The translations under genes and the position numbers were made by a program. This document shows, piece by piece, positions 15,468 through 26,508 of a stretch of 36,909 bases of DNA. Numbering within the stretch: position 1 is the stretch's first letter; each line of letters starts with the position of its first letter. The stretch is from Anaerolineae bacterium. Its GTDB lineage: Bacteria; Chloroflexota; Anaerolineae; B4-G1; DUEL01. The stretch spans positions 1 through 36,909 of the forward strand of contig JAOZPF010000001.1 in assembly GCA_029932895.1 (NCBI GenBank), written 5' to 3'. A model generated the notes under the pieces. That model had not been told where the DNA came from, made no database searches, and saw only the letters and a list, made by a program, of their open reading frames with translations.

Positions 15468-15501
15468 ACGGCCGCGGTGGAGACCCTGTGGGAGGTGTGC
15501 G

Positions 15502-18500
15502 GTGGACGATTTTCTGTTTCGGGATGACCTGGGGACTCTGGACCCAGCCATCGAACGGTTGATTGAGCTGGAGGCGGAGCGACAGGCGCGCAAGCTGATC
15601 ATGATTCCCTCGGAGAGCAGCACCCCCCGCGCCGTCCGCCAGGCGCTGGGCTCTGTCTTTACCAACATCTATGCCGAGGGATACCCGCTGCCGGAAACAC
15701 GTTGGATGGCGGAGGAGCAGCTCCTGGACTATGAGGCTCAGTTGGTCGCCCATCGGCGCTATGGCGACCTGCGTTACTATATGGGCGTGGAGTATGCCGA
15801 CATCGCAGAGGCGCTGGCCAGACGGCGCTGCGCTGATGCTTTTGCCACAGATAATATCCCCGCCGACCGTATCTATGTCAACGTCCAGCCTCTATCTGGC
15901 GCTCCGGCCAACATCGCCGTCTACGAGGCGCTGCTCAAGCCGGGCGATACGATCCTGGGGATGGAGCTGACCCACGGCGGTCATCTCTCCCACGGTAGCC
16001 CGGCCAACGTCTCCGGTCAGCGGTACCATGCGGTCCATTACCGCGTCGATCCCCGCACCGAGCTGCTGGATTATGAGCAGATCGAGGAGATGGCGCTGGA
16101 GCATCGGCCCAAGATCATTGTCGCCGGCTATACCTCCTACCCCCGTCTGCCCAATTGGGCCAAGTTCCGCCGTATCGCCGACCGGGTGGGGGCCTATCTG
16201 TTGGCCGACATCGCCCACGTGGCGGGGATGGTCATCGCCGGAGCTTATCCCACCCCCCTCGGCCATGCCCACGTCATCACTTTTACCACTCACAAGACCC
16301 TGGCTGGCCCGCGGGGCGCCTGTATCCTCACCACCGATCCTCTCATTGCCCGCCGCGTCGACCACGCTGTCTTCCCCGGGCTGCAGGGTGGACCGCATGT
16401 CAACAAGTTCGTGGCGATGGCTGTCGCTTTCCGCTTGGCCCGCACCGAGTCCTTTCACGCTCTCCAGCACCAGATCGTCGCCAATGCCAAAGCGTTAGCC
16501 CAGGCACTCCAGGAAGAGGGGATGCGCATTCCCCACGGCGGCACCGACACACACCTGCTCCTGGTCGATTGCAAGACCGTCGTTGGCCCCTTTGGCGAAC
16601 CGCTGCTGGGCGATACGGCAGCCCGCATTCTCGACCAGGTGGGCATTGTCTGTAATCGCAATACCATCCCCGGCGATCCCTCGCCGGCCCTCGCCAGCGG
16701 CATCCGCCTGGGCACTCCCTGGGTCACCCAGCGCGGCCTGCGAGAGCCCGAGATGGTGGAATTGGCCCACCTGATTGCCGGGACGCTCAAGGCGATCCGG
16801 CCCACCACCTATCCCGGTCGGCACGGCCTGGTCCACCGGGGCCGGGTAGATTTTGATACCCTGGAGGAGGCCAGGCTGGCGGTCGCGGAACTGGCCGACA
16901 AGGCCGGCATCGACTGGGAGGTCCGCTGCTCTGGCTATCCTCACCATTGCCTCATCACCGACATCCGACCATTGGAACGGGAGTGGGGATTGATCGAACT
17001 GGAGGGCAACAGTGTGGCTCCGTTCCTCGACCTGGCGCTGGTGGAGCCGGTGGACGGCCTGGAGCCGGGTCAGTACCGGCCAGCCACGCTCCTGGGGGCC
17101 GACGGGCGACCGATGGCACGCGGCTTTCTCTCCCGCCCCACTTTCCGCTACCAGCGGTACCGGCTGGTCGTGCCATCTGACCGCATGCGGCGGGTGCTGA
17201 CCTGGCTGCGCGATCTCTCGGATGGCTATGTCCTCTTCGATCCGCACGACCTGCAGGCCAAGCTGCCCGGCCCGGTGGTGGTGCGCAACTTGGGAGGGAC
17301 CGACGCGCCAGGGGAATTGCCCGCGGACGAGGGTTTCGAGCCGCCCCTCTCGTTCAAGCCGGCCTACATCGGACTTTCGGTCCATCGCCAAGCCGAACCG
17401 GCAGGCGACCCGCTTCCTCCTTTCGAGTGGCAACCGGGCGAGCAGCCCCTGCGCCGGACAGTGCTCTACCAGGCCCACAAGGAGCTGGGTGCCCACTTTG
17501 TCTCCTTTGGCGGCTGGGAGATGCCGGTTCGGTACGGCCCTGTGCTGGACGAGCACCGGGCGGTGCGCGGGGCGGCCGGCCTGTTCGATGTGGGCCACAT
17601 GGGTATCTTTGAGGTCTCTGGTCCCTTTGCCACCGCCTTCCTCGACCTGGTGACGACCAACGACGTCAACCTGCTGCGGCCAGGACATTCCCACTATGGC
17701 TTCCTGCTCGACCCGGAGGGGCATGTCTTGGATGACCTGCTGATCTATATGCGCGACCCCGACCAGTATATGCTGGTCGTCAATGCCGCCAACACCGAGA
17801 AGGACTGGGCGTGGCTGAACGCGGTCAATGAGGGTCGGGTGCGCATCGATCCGGACCGGCCCTGGGTCCGCCCCTCTTTCCGCGCCGAGCTCGTGGATAT
17901 GAACGCGCCAGGCCAGGAACACAACTGGCGGGTGGACCTGGCCCTGCAAGGGCCGCGGGCGCGTGACATCCTGTTGGATTGGCTGGATGCCAGCCCTCAG
18001 GGCCCGGCCGCGGCCGAGATTCGAGGCCGGTTGCTGGGACTGCGGCGAACAGAGCTGGTCGCGCTCCAGTGGCCGTGGCCCGATGCCCCCGGCGGTGTCT
18101 TTGACCTGCTCGTCGCGCGCACCGGCTACACCGGTGAGCAGATGGGGTTCGAGCTCTATGTCCACCCCGATTGGGCCGTGCAGCTCTGGAACTTGCTTCT
18201 GGAGATCGGCGCTCCCTCCGGCCTGCGTCCCGTGGGGCTGGCGGCCCGCGACTCGCTGCGTATCGAGGCAGGGCTGCCCCTCTACGGCCACGAGTTGGCC
18301 GGCCCGCTCGACCTGCGACCGGATGACGCCGGGCTGGAGGGGTATGTCAAGGTATACAAGCCATTCTTTGTGGGGCGGGAATCCCACCGCCGCCACCTCG
18401 CGGAGCACAAGATGCAGGTGGTCCGTTTCCGCATCGAGGAATCGGGTGTACCTATGCCCAACCAGGGCGACCGGGTGGTTGAGCGGCGAGGGCGCGTGAT

Positions 18501-18711
18501 CGGCGAGGTGACCTCATGCGCGCTGGACACGGAGGGAACTCTGGTGGGCATGGCCTGTGTGGACCGGCGGTTCGCGGAACCAGGTGAGGAGCTAAATATC
18601 TTTGCCCCGGCGCGCAAGCCCACTGGAAAGCCGCTGGACGAGTTGGAGATAGGGGACCGAGTCCCCCTTGCCGTGGAGGGCGTTGTGCTGGAGCGGTTTC
18701 CTCGTTGGTAG
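15502..18711 (+). CDS. glyA/gcvT: fusion protein: divergent serine hydroxymethyltransferase (aa 1-~475) + T-protein-like middle module (~476-649) + aminomethyltransferase GcvT (~650-1069)
   Basis: One uninterrupted 1069-codon frame with GTG start and GGGAGG SD. SHMT motifs: SGAPANIAVY, HGGHLSHG, DIAHVAGMV, TTHKTLAGPRG (PLP Lys), GLQGGPH, NRNTIPGD. GcvT motifs: FDVGHMG, VVNAANTEKDWAWL, RTGYTGEQMGFEL, ARDSLRIEAGLPLYGHEL. Confidence 0.9.
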   Translation: MDDFLFRDDLGTLDPAIERLIELEAERQARKLIMIPSESSTPRAVRQALGSVFTNIYAEGYPLPETRWMAEEQLLDYEAQLVAHRRYGDLRYYMGVEYADIAEALARRRCADAFATDNIPADRIYVNVQPLSGAPANIAVYEALLKPGDTILGMELTHGGHLSHGSPANVSGQRYHAVHYRVDPRTELLDYEQIEEMALEHRPKIIVAGYTSYPRLPNWAKFRRIADRVGAYLLADIAHVAGMVIAGAYPTPLGHAHVITFTTHKTLAGPRGACILTTDPLIARRVDHAVFPGLQGGPHVNKFVAMAVAFRLARTESFHALQHQIVANAKALAQALQEEGMRIPHGGTDTHLLLVDCKTVVGPFGEPLLGDTAARILDQVGIVCNRNTIPGDPSPALASGIRLGTPWVTQRGLREPEMVELAHLIAGTLKAIRPTTYPGRHGLVHRGRVDFDTLEEARLAVAELADKAGIDWEVRCSGYPHHCLITDIRPLEREWGLIELEGNSVAPFLDLALVEPVDGLEPGQYRPATLLGADGRPMARGFLSRPTFRYQRYRLVVPSDRMRRVLTWLRDLSDGYVLFDPHDLQAKLPGPVVVRNLGGTDAPGELPADEGFEPPLSFKPAYIGLSVHRQAEPAGDPLPPFEWQPGEQPLRRTVLYQAHKELGAHFVSFGGWEMPVRYGPVLDEHRAVRGAAGLFDVGHMGIFEVSGPFATAFLDLVTTNDVNLLRPGHSHYGFLLDPEGHVLDDLLIYMRDPDQYMLVVNAANTEKDWAWLNAVNEGRVRIDPDRPWVRPSFRAELVDMNAPGQEHNWRVDLALQGPRARDILLDWLDASPQGPAAAEIRGRLLGLRRTELVALQWPWPDAPGGVFDLLVARTGYTGEQMGFELYVHPDWAVQLWNLLLEIGAPSGLRPVGLAARDSLRIEAGLPLYGHELAGPLDLRPDDAGLEGYVKVYKPFFVGRESHRRHLAEHKMQVVRFRIEESGVPMPNQGDRVVERRGRVIGEVTSCALDTEGTLVGMACVDRRFAEPGEELNIFAPARKPTGKPLDELEIGDRVPLAVEGVVLERFPRW

Positions 18712-18919: not shown

Positions 18920-18996
18920 GGGCGGTTAGCTCAGTTGGTTAGAGCGCTTCCCTTACAAGGAAGAGGTCACAGGTTCGAGTCCTGTACCGCCCACCA
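18920..18996 (+). tRNA. tRNA-Val (anticodon UAC), CCA encoded
   Basis: Hand-folded cloverleaf. Acceptor GGGCGGT/ACCGCCC, D stem GCTC/GAGC, anticodon stem CTTCC/GGAAG with loop CT-TAC-AA, T arm ACAGG-TTCGAGT-CCTGT, discriminator A, then CCA. 77 nt in total. Confidence 0.95.
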
Positions 18997-19049
18997 CACC
19001 GGTGCCGGGCGTTCCTGGAGCGTCCGGCGCTGACGGTCGGAGGTCCTGG

Positions 19050-20003
19050 TTGAAGCTCTTGCTGCCTGATCATTTGCTCGAGTCGTTGGGCCAGCGGATA
19101 TGCCGTGTCGCCCCCGAGTGCCAGATCGTCCCTGTCGATGATAAGGGGAAGGTGGAGGGCGATCCGAGCGATAGCGAGGTTCTCTTTCTGCGCTGGGGGC
19201 TTGACCGCGAGTCCTTTGAGCGGCTGGTGAACGATACTCCCAACCTGCGCTGGATTCACTCCATCAGCGCCGGTGTGGAACACATTCTCTTCCCCGCCCT
19301 AGCCGGGTCCGACGTGATTCTGACCAATGCCAGCGGGGTCTTTAGCGTCCCCATCGCCGAGACGGTCCTGGGCTATATGCTGGCGGTAGCCAAGCGGTTC
19401 CCCGCCTTTTTTGCACAGCAGCAGGCGCGTTGCTGGCGCAAACTCCCCCTGCGCGAGCTGCGCGGCCTGACGGTGGGCATTATCGGGTTAGGTGGCATCG
19501 GCTCGGAGGTGGCCCGCCTTTGTCGTGCATTTGGCATGCAGGTCCTGGGGCTACAACGGACCCCCCGCCCCAACGCCTACGCCGACGAGGTGCTGGATGG
19601 TACCCATCTCCACGACCTGCTGGCCCGCTCCGACTTTGTGCTCATTTCCATACCGCTCACCGCGGCGACCCGTGGGCTGATCGGCGCGGCCGAGCTGGCA
19701 GCGATGAGACCGGACGGCTGGTTGATCAACGTCGCCCGCGGCCCCATCGTGGACGAACGGGCACTGGTCGAGGCGCTGCAAGAGAGGCGCATCGGCGGGG
19801 CTTGCCTGGACGTCTTTGCCGAGGAGCCACTGCCGGAGGACAGCCCTCTCTGGGACCTACCCAACGTCATCATCACCCCTCACGATTCGTGGAGCAGCCC
19901 GCACCTGGAGGAGAGGGAGGCCGAGTTGTTCTTGGAAAACCTGCGCCGTTACGTGGCTGGTCAGGTCCTTCTCAATGTGGTGGACAAGGAAGCAGGTTAC
20001 TAG
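19050..20003 (+). CDS. D-isomer-specific 2-hydroxyacid dehydrogenase family (glyoxylate/hydroxypyruvate reductase or PGDH-like)
   Basis: NAD-binding site GIIGLGGIGSEVA, then NVARGPIVDE, LDVF..EPLP and ITPH (catalytic His). The track ORF starts at GTG 19002, only 6 nt after the tRNA. I prefer the in-frame TTG at 19050, which has GGAGG at 19039-19043. The start is uncertain. Confidence 0.82.
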   Translation: MKLLLPDHLLESLGQRICRVAPECQIVPVDDKGKVEGDPSDSEVLFLRWGLDRESFERLVNDTPNLRWIHSISAGVEHILFPALAGSDVILTNASGVFSVPIAETVLGYMLAVAKRFPAFFAQQQARCWRKLPLRELRGLTVGIIGLGGIGSEVARLCRAFGMQVLGLQRTPRPNAYADEVLDGTHLHDLLARSDFVLISIPLTAATRGLIGAAELAAMRPDGWLINVARGPIVDERALVEALQERRIGGACLDVFAEEPLPEDSPLWDLPNVIITPHDSWSSPHLEEREAELFLENLRRYVAGQVLLNVVDKEAGY

Positions 20004-20014
20004 AGCGCTCCGAG

Positions 20015-22573
20015 ATGATCTACCTGAACGACCTGCTTGCAGCCACCGGGGGGAAACGCGTCGGCCCCGTGACGCCACGACAGTTTCCTGCCTTTTGCTA
20101 CGATGCGCGCCGTGTCCAGCCAGGTGACCTCTTTGTGGCGGTCAAGACCGAGGATGGGGACGGACACGACCGCATTGGGGAGGCCGTGACGAACGGAGCC
20201 AGCGGGGTGTTGTGCCAGTTCCCGCCCGATAGGCCGACCGTACCCTGCATCGTCGTCCCGGACACGCAACTGGCCCTCACCGAGTGGGCTGCTTATGTCC
20301 TGCACAAGGTCAACCCGCAGGTCGTGGGGGTTACCGGCTCCACAGGCAAGACCGATGCCACCCGGGCCATCGCCGCCGTTCTCTCGGTTCGCTACCGGGT
20401 GTTCACCAACCCGCCAGACCTGAGCAACCGTTTTGGGCTGCCCATCTCTCTGGCCGGCCTCTCCAGCGAGCACGAGGCGTCCGTCCTGGAGCTGGCCTCC
20501 CATGCCTTTGACGACATCGCGCATTTGGCCGAGCTGATCCATCCGCGCGTCGCCGTCGTCACCGCCGTCAACGAAGCGCACCTGGCCTACCTGGGCAGCC
20601 TGGAGGCCATCGCTCAGGAGAAGGGTTCGCTGGTCGAGGCGCTCCCACCCGACGGCGTGGCGGTGCTGAACTATGATGACCCGTGGGTGCGCGGGATGCG
20701 GGAGCGGACCCGTGCCCACGTTGTCACCTACGGGCTTGGTCCCGATGCCGACATCGTTGCCTCTGACCTCCGCCCCGACCCGGAGGGGCTTCAGTTCGTC
20801 GTTCACTTTCCCGGCGTCAGCGGGCTGGGCACCCCTGGCTATCCGGCCAAGGCCGAGGTGCGCACCCGCCTTCTGGGCCGCCACCAAGCCCACACTGTCC
20901 TCGCTGCCATCGCCGTTGGCCTGGCCTACCACGTTCCGTGGGACGATATTCTGGACGTAGTGGAGGAACTGCGCCCTGCCCCCGGTCGCCTGCAGGCCCT
21001 GCCGGGGGTGGGTGGGTCGCTCCTTCTGGACGGCTCGGCCAGTTGCAGCCCCGTCACTGCCTTGCAGGCCCTTGTCGCCCTGGCTGATTATCCTGCCCAC
21101 CGCCGCATCGCCGTCATGGGCGATATGGCCCAGTTGGGTGGCTACGCGGTGGAGGGTCATCGCCGGGTGGGGCGAGCTGCTGCTGCCTTTGTCGATCTCC
21201 TGGTTGTAAAGGGGGAGCGCGCCGTCTGGATCGCCGACGCGGCCGAGGAGGCCGGCCTCTCGGGCGAACGAACCCTGGTCACTTATACCGCCCGCGATGT
21301 CGTGCGCCACCTCCACTCGCAACTGGGACCGGGCGATGTCGTGCTGATCAAGGGGGATGTCGAGACGCAGATGGAGGAGGTGGTGAAAGGGCTTCTCGCC
21401 CGCCCTGAGGATACCGACAATCTGGTGCGGCGGGTGGACGGCATGGCGGTCCGTACCGCTCGCCCGGCCCGTCCCACCTGGGTGGAGGTCGATCTGGAGG
21501 CGGTAGCGTTCAACGTCCGCCAGGTGAAGCAGATCGTCGGGCCGGAGGTGGATGTGCTGGCGGTGCTCAAGGCGGATGCGTACGGGCATGGCGCTCTCAC
21601 CGTCGCTCGCACCGCTTTCAACAACGGCGCTTCCTACGGCGGAGTGGCCTCGGTCAACGAGGCGATCAAGCTCCGAGAGGGCGGGGTGGATGCCCCTCTC
21701 CTGGTTCTGGGGTACACTCCTGCCTGGCTGGCGCGGGACGCGCTGCTCCACGATGTCACCCTGACCCTCTACGACACGGAGCTGGCGTGGGCCTTTAGCC
21801 GCGCTGCCATCGACCTGCGCCGCATCGCCCACGTGCACATCAAGGTGGATACCGGCATGGGACGGCTGGGGTTGCTGCCCGACCAGGTCGTTCCCTTTGT
21901 GGCCGAGATTCGCGATCTACCCAACCTCGACCTGGAGGGCATCTTTACCCACTTTTCCATCGCCGACGATGAGGACCTAAGCTACACCCGTTACCAGCTT
22001 GCTCGCTTCGAGAGGGTGTTGGAGCAGTTGGAGGCCATCGGCGTCACTTTCCGCCGCGTTCACTGCGCCAATTCGGCCGGTCTCCTGCGGTTGCCCCAGG
22101 CGCGGTTCAACATGGTCCGTCTGGGCCTGGCGATGTACGGCTTGCAGCCTTCCCCTTATGTTCCCCTGCCCCCCGGTTTCCGGCCCGCACTGACCTGGCA
22201 CACGACCGTCGCCCAGGTAAAGAGATTGCCGCCGGGCAGCTATGTCAGCTATGGCAATACCTACCGCACCGCGGGAGAGGAGACCATCGCTGTCATCCCG
22301 GTGGGCTATGCCGATGGTTTCCGCCGTGCTCCCACCCGCTGGCAGGCCGTCCTGGTTCGCGGGCAGCGCGCGCCGATCGTGGGCCGCGTCTGTATGGACC
22401 AGACGATGATCAATGTCAGCCACATTCCCAACGTCCGTGTGGGGGACGAGGTCGTGCTCATTGGCCCTCAGGGTGATGACGAGATCACCGCCGAGGAGGT
22501 GGCGGACTGGCTGGGGACGATCAACTATGAAGTGGTCTCCGAGATATTGGCCCGGGTGCCACGGGTGGTGTAA
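20015..22573 (+). CDS. murF/alr: bifunctional UDP-MurNAc-tripeptide--D-Ala-D-Ala ligase (MurF, aa 1-~465) / alanine racemase (Alr, aa ~485-852)
   Basis: Start at MIYLNDLLAATGG (ATG 20015). The upstream 195 codons of track ORF 19430..22573 overlap the dehydrogenase gene in another frame. MurF: VGVTGSTGKT P-loop. Alr: TWVEVDLEAV..., LKADAYGHG (PLP Lys), YGNTY, VCMDQ. Confidence 0.9.
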   Translation: MIYLNDLLAATGGKRVGPVTPRQFPAFCYDARRVQPGDLFVAVKTEDGDGHDRIGEAVTNGASGVLCQFPPDRPTVPCIVVPDTQLALTEWAAYVLHKVNPQVVGVTGSTGKTDATRAIAAVLSVRYRVFTNPPDLSNRFGLPISLAGLSSEHEASVLELASHAFDDIAHLAELIHPRVAVVTAVNEAHLAYLGSLEAIAQEKGSLVEALPPDGVAVLNYDDPWVRGMRERTRAHVVTYGLGPDADIVASDLRPDPEGLQFVVHFPGVSGLGTPGYPAKAEVRTRLLGRHQAHTVLAAIAVGLAYHVPWDDILDVVEELRPAPGRLQALPGVGGSLLLDGSASCSPVTALQALVALADYPAHRRIAVMGDMAQLGGYAVEGHRRVGRAAAAFVDLLVVKGERAVWIADAAEEAGLSGERTLVTYTARDVVRHLHSQLGPGDVVLIKGDVETQMEEVVKGLLARPEDTDNLVRRVDGMAVRTARPARPTWVEVDLEAVAFNVRQVKQIVGPEVDVLAVLKADAYGHGALTVARTAFNNGASYGGVASVNEAIKLREGGVDAPLLVLGYTPAWLARDALLHDVTLTLYDTELAWAFSRAAIDLRRIAHVHIKVDTGMGRLGLLPDQVVPFVAEIRDLPNLDLEGIFTHFSIADDEDLSYTRYQLARFERVLEQLEAIGVTFRRVHCANSAGLLRLPQARFNMVRLGLAMYGLQPSPYVPLPPGFRPALTWHTTVAQVKRLPPGSYVSYGNTYRTAGEETIAVIPVGYADGFRRAPTRWQAVLVRGQRAPIVGRVCMDQTMINVSHIPNVRVGDEVVLIGPQGDDEITAEEVADWLGTINYEVVSEILARVPRVV

Positions 22574-22609: not shown

Positions 22610-22703
22610 GAGGGTGTGCACTGGATGTCGGCCCGATCGCCCGGCCGCAACCAGGATTTAGCCCCAAGAGGGCAATCCGTGACCAGCAGAAGGAGGTTTG
22701 GCG

Positions 22704-23093
22704 ATGAAACTGGATGCGAACGCGCGGTACACCGAAGAGCACGAGTGGGCGCGGCCGGACGACGCCGAATTCGTCTGTGGCATCACCGACCATGCCCAAG
22801 ACTCGCTCGGCGATATCGTCTACGTGGAACTGCCGGAGGTGGGAGATACTTTCGAGCAGGGAGAGACGTTCGGTGTCGTCGAGTCGGTAAAGGCTGCCTC
22901 CGACCTCTATATGCCGCTGGGCGGGGAGATCACCGCCGTCAACGAGGTGCTGGAGGACACGCCAGAGCTGGTCAACCAGGACCCCTATGGCGAGGGCTGG
23001 ATGATCCGCATCAGCCCCTCCGACCCCGCCGAGTTCGATGACCTGCTGGACGCCGACGCCTACGAGACTTTTGTGGCGGAGGAAGAGGTATAA
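22704..23093 (+). CDS. gcvH: glycine cleavage system H protein
   Basis: MKLDANARYTEEHEWA...; lipoyl-lysine motif VESVKAASDLY. ATG 22704 lies 7 nt after AGGAGG (22691-22696). The track start TTG 22698 is less likely. Confidence 0.93.
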   Translation: MKLDANARYTEEHEWARPDDAEFVCGITDHAQDSLGDIVYVELPEVGDTFEQGETFGVVESVKAASDLYMPLGGEITAVNEVLEDTPELVNQDPYGEGWMIRISPSDPAEFDDLLDADAYETFVAEEEV

Positions 23094-23140
23094 CTCGCAA
23101 CTCGCAATTTGCCACTCGCAATTCGCAATTCGCAACTCGC
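23092..23140. repeat. heptanucleotide tandem repeat (AAYTCGC, ~7 units) filling the gcvH-gcvPA spacer
   Basis: AACTCGC AACTCGC AATTTGCC ACTCGC AATTCGC AATTCGC AACTCGC. It begins inside the gcvH stop codon and ends 4 nt before the GAGGTG SD of gcvPA. Confidence 0.85.
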
Positions 23141-23156
23141 CACACGAGGTGTCTCT

Positions 23157-24500
23157 ATGCCCTATATCCCGCACAGTGACCAAGACCGGGACGCGATGCT
23201 CAAAGCCATCGGCGTCCGCTCCATAGAGGAGCTTTTTCAGGATGTGCCGCAGCGCGTCCGCTTTCCACCGCTCGACCTGCCCCCTGCTCTTTCTGAATTG
23301 GAGGCGAGGTGGGAGCTGGAGGCGCTGGCTGGGGTGAATTTCACCGCCGGCGATGGCCCTTGCTTCCTGGGAGCGGGAGCATACCATCATTTCGTCCCCG
23401 CCGTGGTGGACGCGGTGCTGCGCCGGGGTGAGTTCACTACTGCTTACACCCCCTATCAGCCCGAGATCAGCCAGGGAACCCTGCAGGCCATTTTCGAGTA
23501 CCAGACGATGATCTGTGAACTGACGGGGATGGAGGTCGCCAATGCCTCCCACTATGACGGCGCTACCGCCACCGCCGAGGCAGTCATCACCGCTGTCAAT
23601 GTGCAGCGAATGAAGCGGCGCAAGGCGATCATCTCTCCCCTGGTCCACCCGGAGTATCGGGCGGTGACGCGCACCTACACTCAGGGGATGGGGCTGACCA
23701 TCGTGGGCGATGAGGAGCCGCAGGCAAGCCTGGCGGACCTGGTGGCGCGGGTGGACGAAGAGACTGCCTGCCTGGTCGTCCAGACCCCCAATTTCTTGGG
23801 GCAGATCGAGGAACTGGAGGGGCTGGCAGACGCTGTCCACGCGAAGAAGGCACTTTTGATCGTCGTGGTCAACCCCATCAGTTTGGGGCTGCTCAAGCCG
23901 CCCGGCGCTTTTGGGGCCGATATCGTGGTGGGCGAGGGACAGGGGATGGGTGTCGGCCTGAACTTTGGCGGCCCGTACCTGGGGTTTTTCGCCACACGGA
24001 CCAAATACGTGCGCAAGATGTCCGGCCGGCTGGTCGGCCAGACGGTGGACGCGGAGGGAGAACGGGGGTTTGTCCTCACCCTCTCCACCCGCGAACAGCA
24101 TATCCGCCGCGAAAAGGCCACGTCCAACATCTGCTCCAACCAGGGGCTGGTGGCGCTGGCGGCGGCGGTCTACATGTCCGCGTTGGGCCGCCACGGGATG
24201 CGCCGCGTGGCCGAGCTGTGCTACCACCGTGCCCACTATGCCGCCGCGCGGATTGAGGCGCTGGATGGGTTCGCTGTCCTGCGGGAGAGACCGTTCTTCG
24301 ACGAGTTTGTGGTCCGCTGCCCCCGCCCGGTGTCAGAGATCAATGACATCCTGCTGGACGAGTGGGGCATCATCGGCGGTTACGATCTGGGGCAAGAGTA
24401 TGCTCACTTGCAGGATCACATGCTCCTGTGTGTGACCGAGATGAACCCCAGGAGCGAGATCAACCTGCTGGTGGAGGCGCTGGAGGAGGTCGTTTCATGA
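23157..24500 (+). CDS. gcvPA: glycine dehydrogenase (decarboxylating) subunit 1
   Basis: Start [20 protein letters not shown] (ATG 23157; GAGGTG SD). The track ORF start at 23109 lies inside the repeat array. Typical GcvPA N-terminus, and [13 protein letters not shown]. Confidence 0.92.
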
Positions 24501-25960
24501 TAGAGCCCTTGATCTTTGAGATCTCCCGCCCTGGACGTTGCGCCACGTCGCTGCCAGAGCTGGATGTGGAGCCGGCCGAACTGCCCGCCGGATTGGTGCG
24601 CGAGGAGTTGAGCCTGCCGGAGGTGAGCGAGGCCGACCTGATTCGCCACTACACCCGCCTCTCCCAGTTGAACTATGCGGTTGATACCGGCTTTTATCCT
24701 CTTGGCTCCTGTACGATGAAGTACAACCCCAAGATCAACGAGGAGGTGGCCCGTCTGCCTGGCTTTGCCCGCCTCCATCCCTATCAAGACGTGGAGACAG
24801 TGCAGGGGGCGCTTTTCCTGATGTACTCTTTGCAGGCGTTCCTGCAAGAGATCGGCGGGTTCGCCGGGGTCAGCCTCCAGCCAGCGGCGGGGGCTCACGG
24901 CGAGCTGACCGGCGTGCTGATGATGCGCGCCTATCACCTGGACCGGGGGGATGTGGCGCGGGACGTGGTCTTGGTACCCGACTCGGCCCACGGCACCAAC
25001 CCCGCCAGCATATCGATGAGTGGCCTCAGAGCGGTGGAGGTTCCTTCAGATGAGCGGGGCAACGTGGACCTGGAAACGCTGGCGGCGGCCTGCCGGGAGC
25101 ATAGCGACCACCTGGTCGGGATGATGCTCACCAATCCCAACACGTTGGGGCTGTTCGATGAGCACCTGGCAGAGATAGTCGCTCTGGTCCACGAGCATGG
25201 CGGGCTGATGTACGGCGACGGGGCCAACATGAACGCGCTGCTGGGGATCACCCGACCGGGCGATCTGGGATTCGACGTCCTGCACTACAACCTGCACAAG
25301 ACCTTTAGCACCCCTCACGGCGGCGGCGGCCCTGGTTCTGGGCCGGTTGGCGCTTCATCGGCGTTGGTCGATTTCCTGCCCGGGCCTATCGTGGCGATTG
25401 ACCCTGAGCGGTCGGAGGGGGACGATCCTTTCTTTGCCCTGATCAATCCGCCCAAGTCGATTGGCCGTGTCAAGAGTTTTTACGGCCATTTTGGCGTGAT
25501 GGTGCGGGCCTACACCTACATTCGGATGTTGGGGGCGGAGGGGTTGCGCCGGGTGGCGGAGTATGCTGTGCTCAATGGCAACTACCTGATGAGCCAGATC
25601 AAGGATGTCTACCACGTTCCTTACGACCGCACCTGCATGCACGAGTTTGTCTGCGAGGGGCGCTTTCCCGATGCTCCGGGCGTGCGGGCCCTGGATATTG
25701 CCAAGCGGCTGATCGATTACGGCTTCCACCCGCCGACCAACTATTTTCCCCTCATCGTCCACGAGGCACTGATGATTGAGCCCACCGAGACAGAGAGCAA
25801 AGAAACGCTGGACCGGTTTGCCGAGGCGCTGCTCAAGATCGCCCAGGAGGCACGCACCGATCCCGCTCTCTTGCATCAGGCACCACACAACGCTCCGCTG
25901 CGGCGGCTGGATGAGGTGCGGGCGGCCAAAGAGTTGATCCTGCGCTGGCAGCCCGAGTAA
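24497..25960 (+). CDS. gcvPB: glycine dehydrogenase (decarboxylating) subunit 2
   Basis: Start [14 protein letters not shown] (ATG 24497), ATGA overlap with the gcvPA stop. SCTMKYNP and PLP-Lys motif [16 protein letters not shown]. Confidence 0.92.
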
Positions 25961-25983: not shown

Positions 25984-26508
25984 GTGGGCGATCAAGTTAT
26001 CCTGGTAGACGGGGACGACCGAGAGACCGGTGTCGGCGACAAGATGGCTGTGCACCGCGAAGGCGCACTCCATCGCGCCTTTTCGGTCTTTGTCTTTGAT
26101 TCGCAGGGGTTGATGCTTCTCCAGCGGCGGGCGGAGGCCAAGTACCATTCCGGCGGCCTCTGGAGCAACGCCTGTTGCAGCCATCCGCGGCCTGGAGAGT
26201 CGACCCTGGCGGCGGCCCACCGCAGGTTGCAGGAGGAGATGGGCTTTGACTGTCCCCTGGAGGAGGCTTTCAGCTTCACCTACCGCGTCCGGCTGGATAA
26301 CGACCTCTTTGAGCACGAGTTCGATCACGTCCTGGTGGGGACGTTCGATGGCGAGCCTGTCCCCAACTCGGAGGAGGTCGCCGGGTGGAGATGGGTCGAT
26401 GTGGAGGAGCTAGAGCGGGACGTTAGGGAGAACCCGAAGCGGTACACCCACTGGTTCAGGATCGTCCTCAGCAGGGTGGTCGACTGGCTGAGGGCAGAGC
26501 GGGCCTGA
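25984..26508 (+). CDS. idi: isopentenyl-diphosphate delta-isomerase, type 1 (Nudix)
   Basis: 174 aa. HREGALHRAFSVFVFD..G.MLLQRRA..K.HSGGLWSNACCSHP and EHEFDHV resemble E. coli Idi. GTG start. Confidence 0.85.
   Translation: MGDQVILVDGDDRETGVGDKMAVHREGALHRAFSVFVFDSQGLMLLQRRAEAKYHSGGLWSNACCSHPRPGESTLAAAHRRLQEEMGFDCPLEEAFSFTYRVRLDNDLFEHEFDHVLVGTFDGEPVPNSEEVAGWRWVDVEELERDVRENPKRYTHWFRIVLSRVVDWLRAERA

Follow-up and report, generated by a model that had tools for sequence, protein, structure and literature searches.

Can one polypeptide carry both serine hydroxymethyltransferase (SHMT) and the T-protein (GcvT) of the glycine cleavage system (GCS), and what would such a protein do? The question is raised by a 1069-amino-acid (aa) open reading frame (ORF) in a stretch of 36,909 nucleotides (nt) from an Anaerolineae bacterium (GenBank assembly GCA_029932895.1, contig JAOZPF010000001.1, positions 1 to 36,909 of the forward strand), referred to here as the window. 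An earlier reading, made from the letters alone and called the sequence-only reading below, proposed that this ORF fuses a divergent SHMT to a complete GcvT, with a degenerate, T-protein-like module between them. We found the frame to be uninterrupted from its GTG start to its stop codon (Table 1), with a Shine-Dalgarno motif (GGGAGG, 15490-15495) 6 nt 5' of the start. All motifs quoted in that reading were found in the translation, and an identical protein is present in the public protein collection (P0001). The window DNA is approximately 64% GC, and a 637-aa antisense ORF overlaps the fusion gene. Since high GC content yields long chance ORFs, ORF length alone is no proof, and the decision falls to the domain scores. 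Both catalytic domains were detected in a Pfam scan, PF00464 (SHMT) at 417.6 bits (5.2e-125; cut-off 27) and PF01571 (GCV_T) at 244.9 bits (1e-72; cut-off 25.6). Profile and structure comparison thus bore out the proposed order of modules, confirming that a full SHMT and a complete GcvT share one ORF, separated by a module that resembles a degenerate T-protein.

The SHMT half scored above the cut-off of the SHMT subfamily model NF000586 (439.4 versus 335 bits), matched PDB entry 2vmv at 2.7e-111, and adopted the SHMT fold in a Foldseek comparison (TMt 0.91 to 1kkj). Its identity to solved bacterial SHMTs was 42-46% in the Foldseek structural alignments and its catalytic residues are all kept, so that "divergent" was too strong a word for it. 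To assess conservation, we aligned 243 full-length fusions, no two of them identical, from Chloroflexota, Planctomycetota, and Kiritimatiellia; all counts out of 243 refer to this alignment. K265, D236, H161, H239, R402, and N387 align to the corresponding residues of solved SHMTs and are kept in 237-243 of these fusions. Compared with stand-alone GlyA (Geobacillus stearothermophilus 1KKJ/2VMV and E. coli 1DFO), the fusion has the same fold and keeps the pyridoxal phosphate (PLP), substrate-carboxylate, and folate residues, but adds an insertion, a 35-aa C-terminal hairpin-helix extension, and a covalently attached T-protein.

The sequence-only reading had noticed the insertion after the EGYP motif and put it at approximately 24 aa; its presence was verified, whereas its length is 28 aa, as alignments to solved SHMTs break at residues 62/91. 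The AlphaFold2 (AF2) monomer model predicts short helices for this segment at low confidence (pLDDT 55-66), and the insertion is present in 241 of the 243 fusions, across all three phyla. Residues 433-467, the C-terminal extension, align to profile positions 416-484 of NF010094, a family of long stand-alone SHMTs, and not to canonical SHMT. Because NF010094 shares this C-terminal segment and also has equal spacing across the insertion site in profile coordinates, insertion and extension were probably inherited from a long SHMT lineage rather than invented in the fusion. The fusion is not itself a member of that family, scoring 313.8 bits against the equivalog NF010094 / PRK13580 (cut-off 735).

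The C-terminal part passed the gcvT equivalog model TIGR00528 (243.9 versus 235.85 bits), while PF08669 (GCV_T_C) scored 25.0 bits, marginally under its cut-off of 25.9. T-proteins from PDB aligned to it in two blocks, 1yx2 from B. subtilis at 2.6e-62 and 1woo from T. maritima at 3e-53. In the alignment to these two structures, the three-domain cloverleaf fold, the catalytic Asp (DD motif), RTGYTGE, and ARDSLRxEAG are all present. D744/D745, R873, Y876, E884, R916, and R920 are conserved, and the C-terminal barrel was modelled by AF2 with a pLDDT of approximately 90. Like stand-alone GcvT (B. subtilis 1YX2, T. maritima 1WOO, and E. coli 3A8I with H-protein), the fusion therefore has all three domains, the catalytic Asp, and the RTGYTGE and ARDSLR motifs. 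Unlike those proteins, its GcvT N-terminus is tethered to a linker and not free, it carries approximately 39 extra residues, and its gene lies outside the gcvH/P operon.

The region between the two enzymes had been described as approximately 170 aa of degenerate GcvT. Its GcvT-like character held, whereas its extent did not: the core comprises approximately 110 aa (residues ~494-603), and the remainder of the interval is divided among the SHMT extension (433-467), the coil after it (468-493), and, beyond the core, the linker (604-648). Against PF01571, the isolated region was sub-threshold (13.6 bits, E 0.039). Three independent tests nonetheless show that the middle module is homologous to GcvT domain 2. 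By hhalign, it matched the GcvT part of its own protein with Prob 97.9 (E 4e-13) when close homologues were used and with Prob 99.5 (E 2.9e-23) for the broad family profile, whereas the control comparison with the SHMT part gave Prob 0.6. A profile built from 17 middle modules matched residues 55-143 of the B. subtilis aminomethyltransferase 1YX2 (E 1.1e-8). The AF2 model of the isolated module had a core pLDDT of 82-92, and its top 49 PDB matches in Foldseek were all GcvT-fold proteins, with approximately 104 aligned columns and a root-mean-square deviation of 2.5-3 A; they comprised T-proteins, sarcosine oxidase alpha (SoxA), dimethylglycine dehydrogenase (DMGDH), Iba57/YgfZ, and LigM. The modelled order of secondary structure, beta-alpha-beta-beta-beta-alpha-beta, is that of GcvT residues 701-799.

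At the positions aligned to the GcvT DDL, the middle module reads ARG, so the catalytic Asp pair is gone, and the folate-binding domain 1 is entirely absent. For these two reasons the module cannot be catalytic. In the linker that follows it, the KP[YF]F[IV]G motif reads KPAYIG (nt 17356-17373), with K619 near-invariant among the fusions. The motif S-x-K-P-Y-F-I-G aligns to the hinge KPFFVGR (aa 951-966), which opens GcvT domain 3, with Prob 84 and E 7e-6, over only 16 columns. From these similarities, we infer that the middle region may be a decayed second GcvT copy derived from an internal duplication, of which domain 2 and the hinge would have been retained for a structural role. VRIDPDRPW..., with which the GcvT extra segment starts, is matched by VLFDPHDLQAKLPGP... 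of the middle module, which suggests that the duplication took place after the GcvT extension arose.

Two apparent further copies of the module were rejected. Variants of approximately 1200 aa do not contain tandem middle modules; each has a single module alongside the domain 2 of its GcvT part, and the additional residues belong to the linker. A middle-module-like tblastn match at 26015-26269 of the window was spurious, as a stop codon interrupts it, its frame differs from that of the NUDIX gene located there, and its E is 0.55 at a realistic database size. Upstream of the module, the coil contains the sequence CSGYPHHC (aa 476-483, nt 16927-16950), in which Y479, P480, and H481 are widely conserved. 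Its two Cys residues are about equally frequent and are found in no more than ~140 of the 243 fusions, which rules out a family-wide metal site; judging from this pattern, CSGYPHHC could bind a metal or form a disulfide in particular clades.

How widespread the architecture is had been raised by the sequence-only reading. A large protein collection held more than 120 protein clusters of 1063-1138 aa that contain both Pfam domains and share 58-82% identity with the fusion. The named clusters come from metagenome-assembled genomes of Anaerolineae/Chloroflexota and are titled either "serine hydroxymethyltransferase" or "GcvT", never both. Species-representative genomes were scanned with middle-module-specific patterns, giving at least 577 confirmed loci; the best 80 of these are nearly all from Chloroflexota (Anaerolineae, Anaerolineales, Thermoflexales/Thermoflexus, Ardenticatenales, and Phototrophicaceae). 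Wherever the contig shows it, SHMT, middle module, and GcvT follow one another in collinear order in all 85 loci examined. A profile search of 1.84 billion cluster representatives returned 336 clusters with the middle module, 210 of them at E <= 1e-10. Among the matches listed that are approximately 1000 aa or longer, the module lies in mid-chain, and eight unusual module-bearing clusters checked by Pfam were all SHMT...GCV_T; the shorter entries are most simply explained as contig fragments. Exact look-ups assigned the ~1200-aa variants to Planctomycetota and a 1027-aa variant to Kiritimatiellia. Distant members retain the SHMT insertion, WLRxLSDG...KxxGP, and KP[YF]F[IV]G, indicating a single origin of the tripartite architecture.

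In the SHMT half, K265 (the PLP lysine), D236, H239, R271, and R402 are present in 243/243 sequences and H161, H164, and G133 in 242/243. The corresponding GcvT residues are D696, D745, and E884 (all 243) and M700, D744, N761, N764, Y876, and R916 (all but one). Such invariance of catalytic residues in both halves implies that both are probably active, with both sites under selection. A pseudoenzyme half was considered for P0225 and P0258, which have weak Pfam SHMT scores, but was rejected since the catalytic residues are essentially invariant across the alignment. In the non-catalytic middle module, W568, D574, G575, K587, and G590, together with K619 of the linker, are near-invariant across the three phyla, a pattern that points to constraint not expected of an inert spacer.

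In some Anaerolineae genomes, two diverged fusions that are paralogues of each other lie within a few kb (L002, 685-3963 and 10001-13288; also L008, L030, L031, L041, and L046). The more distant paralogue has approximately 60% (SHMT), 35% (middle module), and 50% (GcvT) identity to the window protein. The two copies of a pair belong to different clades and both have intact catalytic residues, suggesting an old duplication with divided roles.

For the whole chain, AF2 predicted a monomer with a pTM of 0.83 and a pLDDT of 85.4. A pTM of 0.83 would be difficult to obtain without a confident prediction of how the three modules sit relative to one another, and it suggests that they pack in a defined, compact way and are not loosely strung together. 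When the whole model was used in a fold search for a solved two-domain relative, only SHMTs were returned (TMq <= 0.37); solved structures cover no more than the SHMT third of the model, and none spans both halves. Stand-alone SHMTs are obligate dimers, and the fusion would therefore be expected to form, probably, an SHMT dimer core bearing two T-protein arms.

One-carbon units enter folate metabolism mainly by two routes, SHMT and the GCS, and the SHMT and T-protein reactions share the pair tetrahydrofolate (THF) / 5,10-methylene-THF. We propose, with a probability of about 0.7, that the fusion is bifunctional, has both activities, and serves the GCS. Its N-terminal half would be a PLP-dependent SHMT, and its C-terminal 420 residues would act as an aminomethyltransferase whose H-protein and P-protein partners are encoded by genes of their own (gcvH, gcvPA, and gcvPB), with the two activities set at 1:1 by the covalent link. 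In the reaction 2 Gly -> Ser + CO2 + NH3, the T site would make methylene-THF, and the SHMT site would consume it and return THF. Because both reactions use the same cofactor pair, local hand-over of the labile methylene-THF would be the likely main benefit of the fusion. Pathway logic makes such a hand-over chemically sensible only for this reaction and its reverse. When serine is fully oxidised, methylene-THF is a product of both sites, and in reductive glycine/serine synthesis it is a substrate of both, which leaves neither site with anything to pass to the other. The tie to the reductive-glycine module is accordingly weaker than that to a photorespiration-type conversion of 2 Gly to Ser.

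The genomic context supports a GCS partner in part. No GcvT homologue, and no second SHMT, was found in the window besides the fusion, which is thus its only T-protein, as the sequence-only reading had stated. That reading was also right that gcvH-PA-PB lies downstream and lacks a T gene; the cluster is not adjacent to the fusion and starts 4 kb downstream, with three genes between. A T-less gcvH-PA-PB occurs within 10 kb of the fusion in 3 of the 85 loci (L001, L011, and L051), where, as in the window, the reachable sequence holds no T gene besides the fusion, and in L084 a P-protein gene lies 9 kb away. In L001, a caspase-like Peptidase_C14 gene (20089-21453, minus strand) is located between gcvPA and gcvPB.

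Several observations weigh against the proposed role. Approximately 80 of the 85 loci have no gcv genes within 10 kb. In the window itself, a tRNA-Val gene, a 2-hydroxyacid dehydrogenase gene, and a MurF-Alr gene intervene between the fusion and gcvH-PA-PB, which makes co-transcription unlikely, and the gcv genes probably form a separate transcription unit. The GcvT part scored below the cut-off of the subfamily model NF001567 (280.9 versus 300). Its ~39 extra residues, at aa ~785-865 (nt ~17854-18096) between the end of domain 2 and the RTGYTGE motif, are absent from solved T-proteins. Because of the missed cut-off and these extra residues, the substrate of the GcvT part could be something other than H-protein-bound aminomethyl-lipoate. 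In addition, work on plant mitochondria reportedly showed that the glycine decarboxylase complex (GDC) and SHMT are coupled via the folate pool without strict channelling.

The main rival to a hand-over is that the fusion provides only co-expression and fixed stoichiometry, with methylene-THF equilibrating with the cellular pool and the middle module an inert leftover of duplication. We consider this explanation somewhat unlikely. It would fit the linker, whose length of 46-200 aa between lineages is unexpected for a precise tunnel, and it would fit serine breakdown and the reductive direction, in which both enzymes act in the same way on the folate pool. Moreover, the fusion is probably a housekeeping SHMT as well, with linkage to serine genes in 13 of the 85 loci. 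An inert leftover is difficult to reconcile with the strong conservation of W568, D574-G575, K587, G590, and K619 across three phyla, and the predicted compact arrangement (pTM 0.83) also argues against mere tethering. Direct channelling of methylene-THF is itself plausible but less likely than not.

A more specific version of the hand-over can be imagined, in which the fusion would be a self-contained glycine-to-serine machine and a single folate, probably polyglutamylated, would remain bound and swing between the T site and the SHMT site of an SHMT-dimer core. An enclosed path and/or a dock for the H-protein would then be built from three elements: the conserved, vestigial GcvT domain 2, the KPYFIG hinge, and the SHMT insertion beside the folate entrance. 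We regard this version as speculative and rather unlikely. If true, it would amount to a natural covalent GDC-SHMT metabolon in which cofactor channelling is directly measurable.

A different possibility is that the C-terminal domain is another THF-dependent enzyme of the GcvT fold, for example a demethylase or an aminomethyl-transferase with some other donor, and that it supplies SHMT with methylene-THF. The missed NF001567 cut-off, the marginally sub-threshold GCV_T_C score, the extra residues (which lie in domain 1 in this reading), and the lack of nearby gcvH/P genes at most loci would all be compatible with it, and GcvT folds are often fused to enzymes that generate one-carbon units (DMGDH, SoxA, and trimethylamine N-oxide (TMAO) demethylase). 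However, the domain passed the TIGR00528 equivalog, its closest matches of known structure are true T-proteins (2.6e-62 and 3e-53), with demethylases and oxidases far behind, the fusion has no partner oxidase or demethylase domain, and T-less gcvH-PA-PB clusters lie near it in the window and in three other loci. We therefore judge this alternative improbable and retain the T-protein assignment. An assembly or frameshift artefact joining two adjacent genes, for which the sole prior concern was that high-GC DNA carries spurious long ORFs, here with the 637-aa antisense overlap, is ruled out by the recurrence of the same architecture, including a conserved junction region, in more than 120 clusters, 243 distinct full-length sequences, and at least 577 species genomes from hundreds of independent assemblies.

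Fusions of a THF-binding GcvT fold to a second catalytic domain are known from dimethylglycine oxidase/dehydrogenase (DMGO/DMGDH), SoxA, and TMAO demethylase, and in fusions of that kind the reactive one-carbon intermediate is captured locally. GcvT-fold fusion enzymes structurally match both the GcvT part and the middle module of the protein described here. In DMGO/DMGDH, SoxA, and TMAO demethylase, the partner makes an iminium or formaldehyde that the GcvT fold traps, whereas in the SHMT-GcvT fusion the partner is a second folate enzyme, the shared item would be the folate cofactor, and an extra vestigial GcvT domain 2 is present. Two consecutive folate steps are also carried out on one polypeptide, with a proposed hand-over, by DHFR-TS (dihydrofolate reductase joined to thymidylate synthase), formiminotransferase-cyclodeaminase, and FolD. 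The fusion resembles them in this respect, but its folds and chemistry are unrelated and its hand-over is only hypothetical. The same pair of reactions runs in the direction 2 Gly -> Ser during photorespiration in plant mitochondria; there, GDC and SHMT are separate proteins coupled via the matrix folate pool, whereas the fusion is one polypeptide.

We found no description of an SHMT-GcvT fusion in the full-text literature searched, most subscription journals being outside the scope of that search. Each half is a member or near-member of a familiar family, GcvT folds fused to domains that generate one-carbon units were already known, and the sequences are public; the fusion of neighbouring enzymes will not startle a specialist. 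The new elements are a second folate enzyme as partner, the remnant of GcvT domain 2, and how widely the fusion is distributed. Direct exchange of methylene-THF between SHMT and the GCS has been debated for the plant mitochondrial pair, and a single-chain SHMT/T-protein from hundreds of species in three phyla offers a tractable object for testing GDC-SHMT cofactor channelling. Under single-enzyme names, genomes of Anaerolineae, Planctomycetota, and Kiritimatiellia can seem to lack a T-protein or SHMT gene, a systematic annotation gap that is corrected by recognising the fusion. A compact bifunctional enzyme, available in some versions from thermophiles, could also serve engineered reductive-glycine or serine pathways.

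Table 1. Parts of the SHMT-GcvT fusion gene and the genes downstream of it in the window.
Feature	Position (nt)	Strand	Basis or remark
Whole fusion gene, 1069 aa	15502..18711	+	GTG start; stop 18709-18711; ORF list and translation
SHMT catalytic domain, aa 1-432, PLP lysine K265	15502..16797	+	PF00464, NF000586, PDB, Foldseek
28-aa insertion after EGYP, aa 63-90	15688..15771	+	Gap versus solved SHMTs
SHMT C-terminal extension, aa 433-467, beta-hairpin and helix (predicted)	16798..16902	+	AF2 secondary structure
Coil with CSGYPHHC, aa 468-493	16903..16980	+	pLDDT ~60
Middle module, aa 494-603, non-catalytic GcvT domain 2 homologue	16981..17310	+	hhalign, 1yx2, fold search
Variable linker, aa 604-648, KP[YF]F[IV]G motif	17311..17445	+	Highest entropy and gap content in the protein
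Complete GcvT / T-protein, aa 649-1069	17446..18708	+	PF01571, TIGR00528, PDB T-proteins
tRNA-Val(UAC)	18920..18996	+	Rfam tRNA 77.3 bits; ARAGORN
D-2-hydroxyacid dehydrogenase family gene	19002..20003	+	PF02826 2.6e-61; no NCBIfam model at cut-off
MurF-alanine racemase fusion, ~852 aa	~20018-22573	+	Mur_ligase, Mur_ligase_M, Mur_ligase_C, Ala_racemase_N, Ala_racemase_C
gcvH, lipoyl-lysine motif ESVKA	22698..23093	+	PF01597 2.3e-42
gcvPA, P-protein subunit 1	23109..24500	+	PF02347 4e-132
gcvPB, P-protein subunit 2	24497..25960	+	PF21478 and PF02347; ATG overlaps gcvPA stop codon
NUDIX-family gene directly after gcvPB	25984-26508	+	

No glycine or THF riboswitch was found 5' of the fusion or of gcvH, even at E <= 1. 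Directly upstream of the fusion, 13 of the 85 loci have a divergently oriented cluster that encodes a class-V aminotransferase, a short dehydrogenase resembling phosphoglycerate dehydrogenase, and a DUF1015 protein; examples are L002 (6166-9597, minus strand), L016, L022, L027, L029-L031, L033, L038, L041, and L067. The dehydrogenase scored 339 bits against TIGR01327, below the cut-off of 454, and the aminotransferase is AGXT/BhcA-like rather than SerC-like. The cluster may thus represent either a phosphoserine-type or a hydroxypyruvate-type serine pathway, and its occurrence in these loci links the fusion to serine metabolism.

The tRNA-Val gene of the window lies between the stop codon of the fusion and the 2-hydroxyacid dehydrogenase gene, which begins 6 nt past the tRNA end. 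MurF-Alr, whose gene stands between gcvH and that of the SHMT-GcvT protein, likewise fuses consecutive pathway steps; it joins a complete MurF-type Mur ligase to a complete alanine racemase, combining D-Ala supply with D-Ala-D-Ala addition in peptidoglycan synthesis. Upstream of the fusion, the opposite strand carries a putative L32-like small ORF, fabD, and fabG. On the basis of its sequence, the NUDIX-family gene is suspected to encode a type-1 isopentenyl-diphosphate isomerase.

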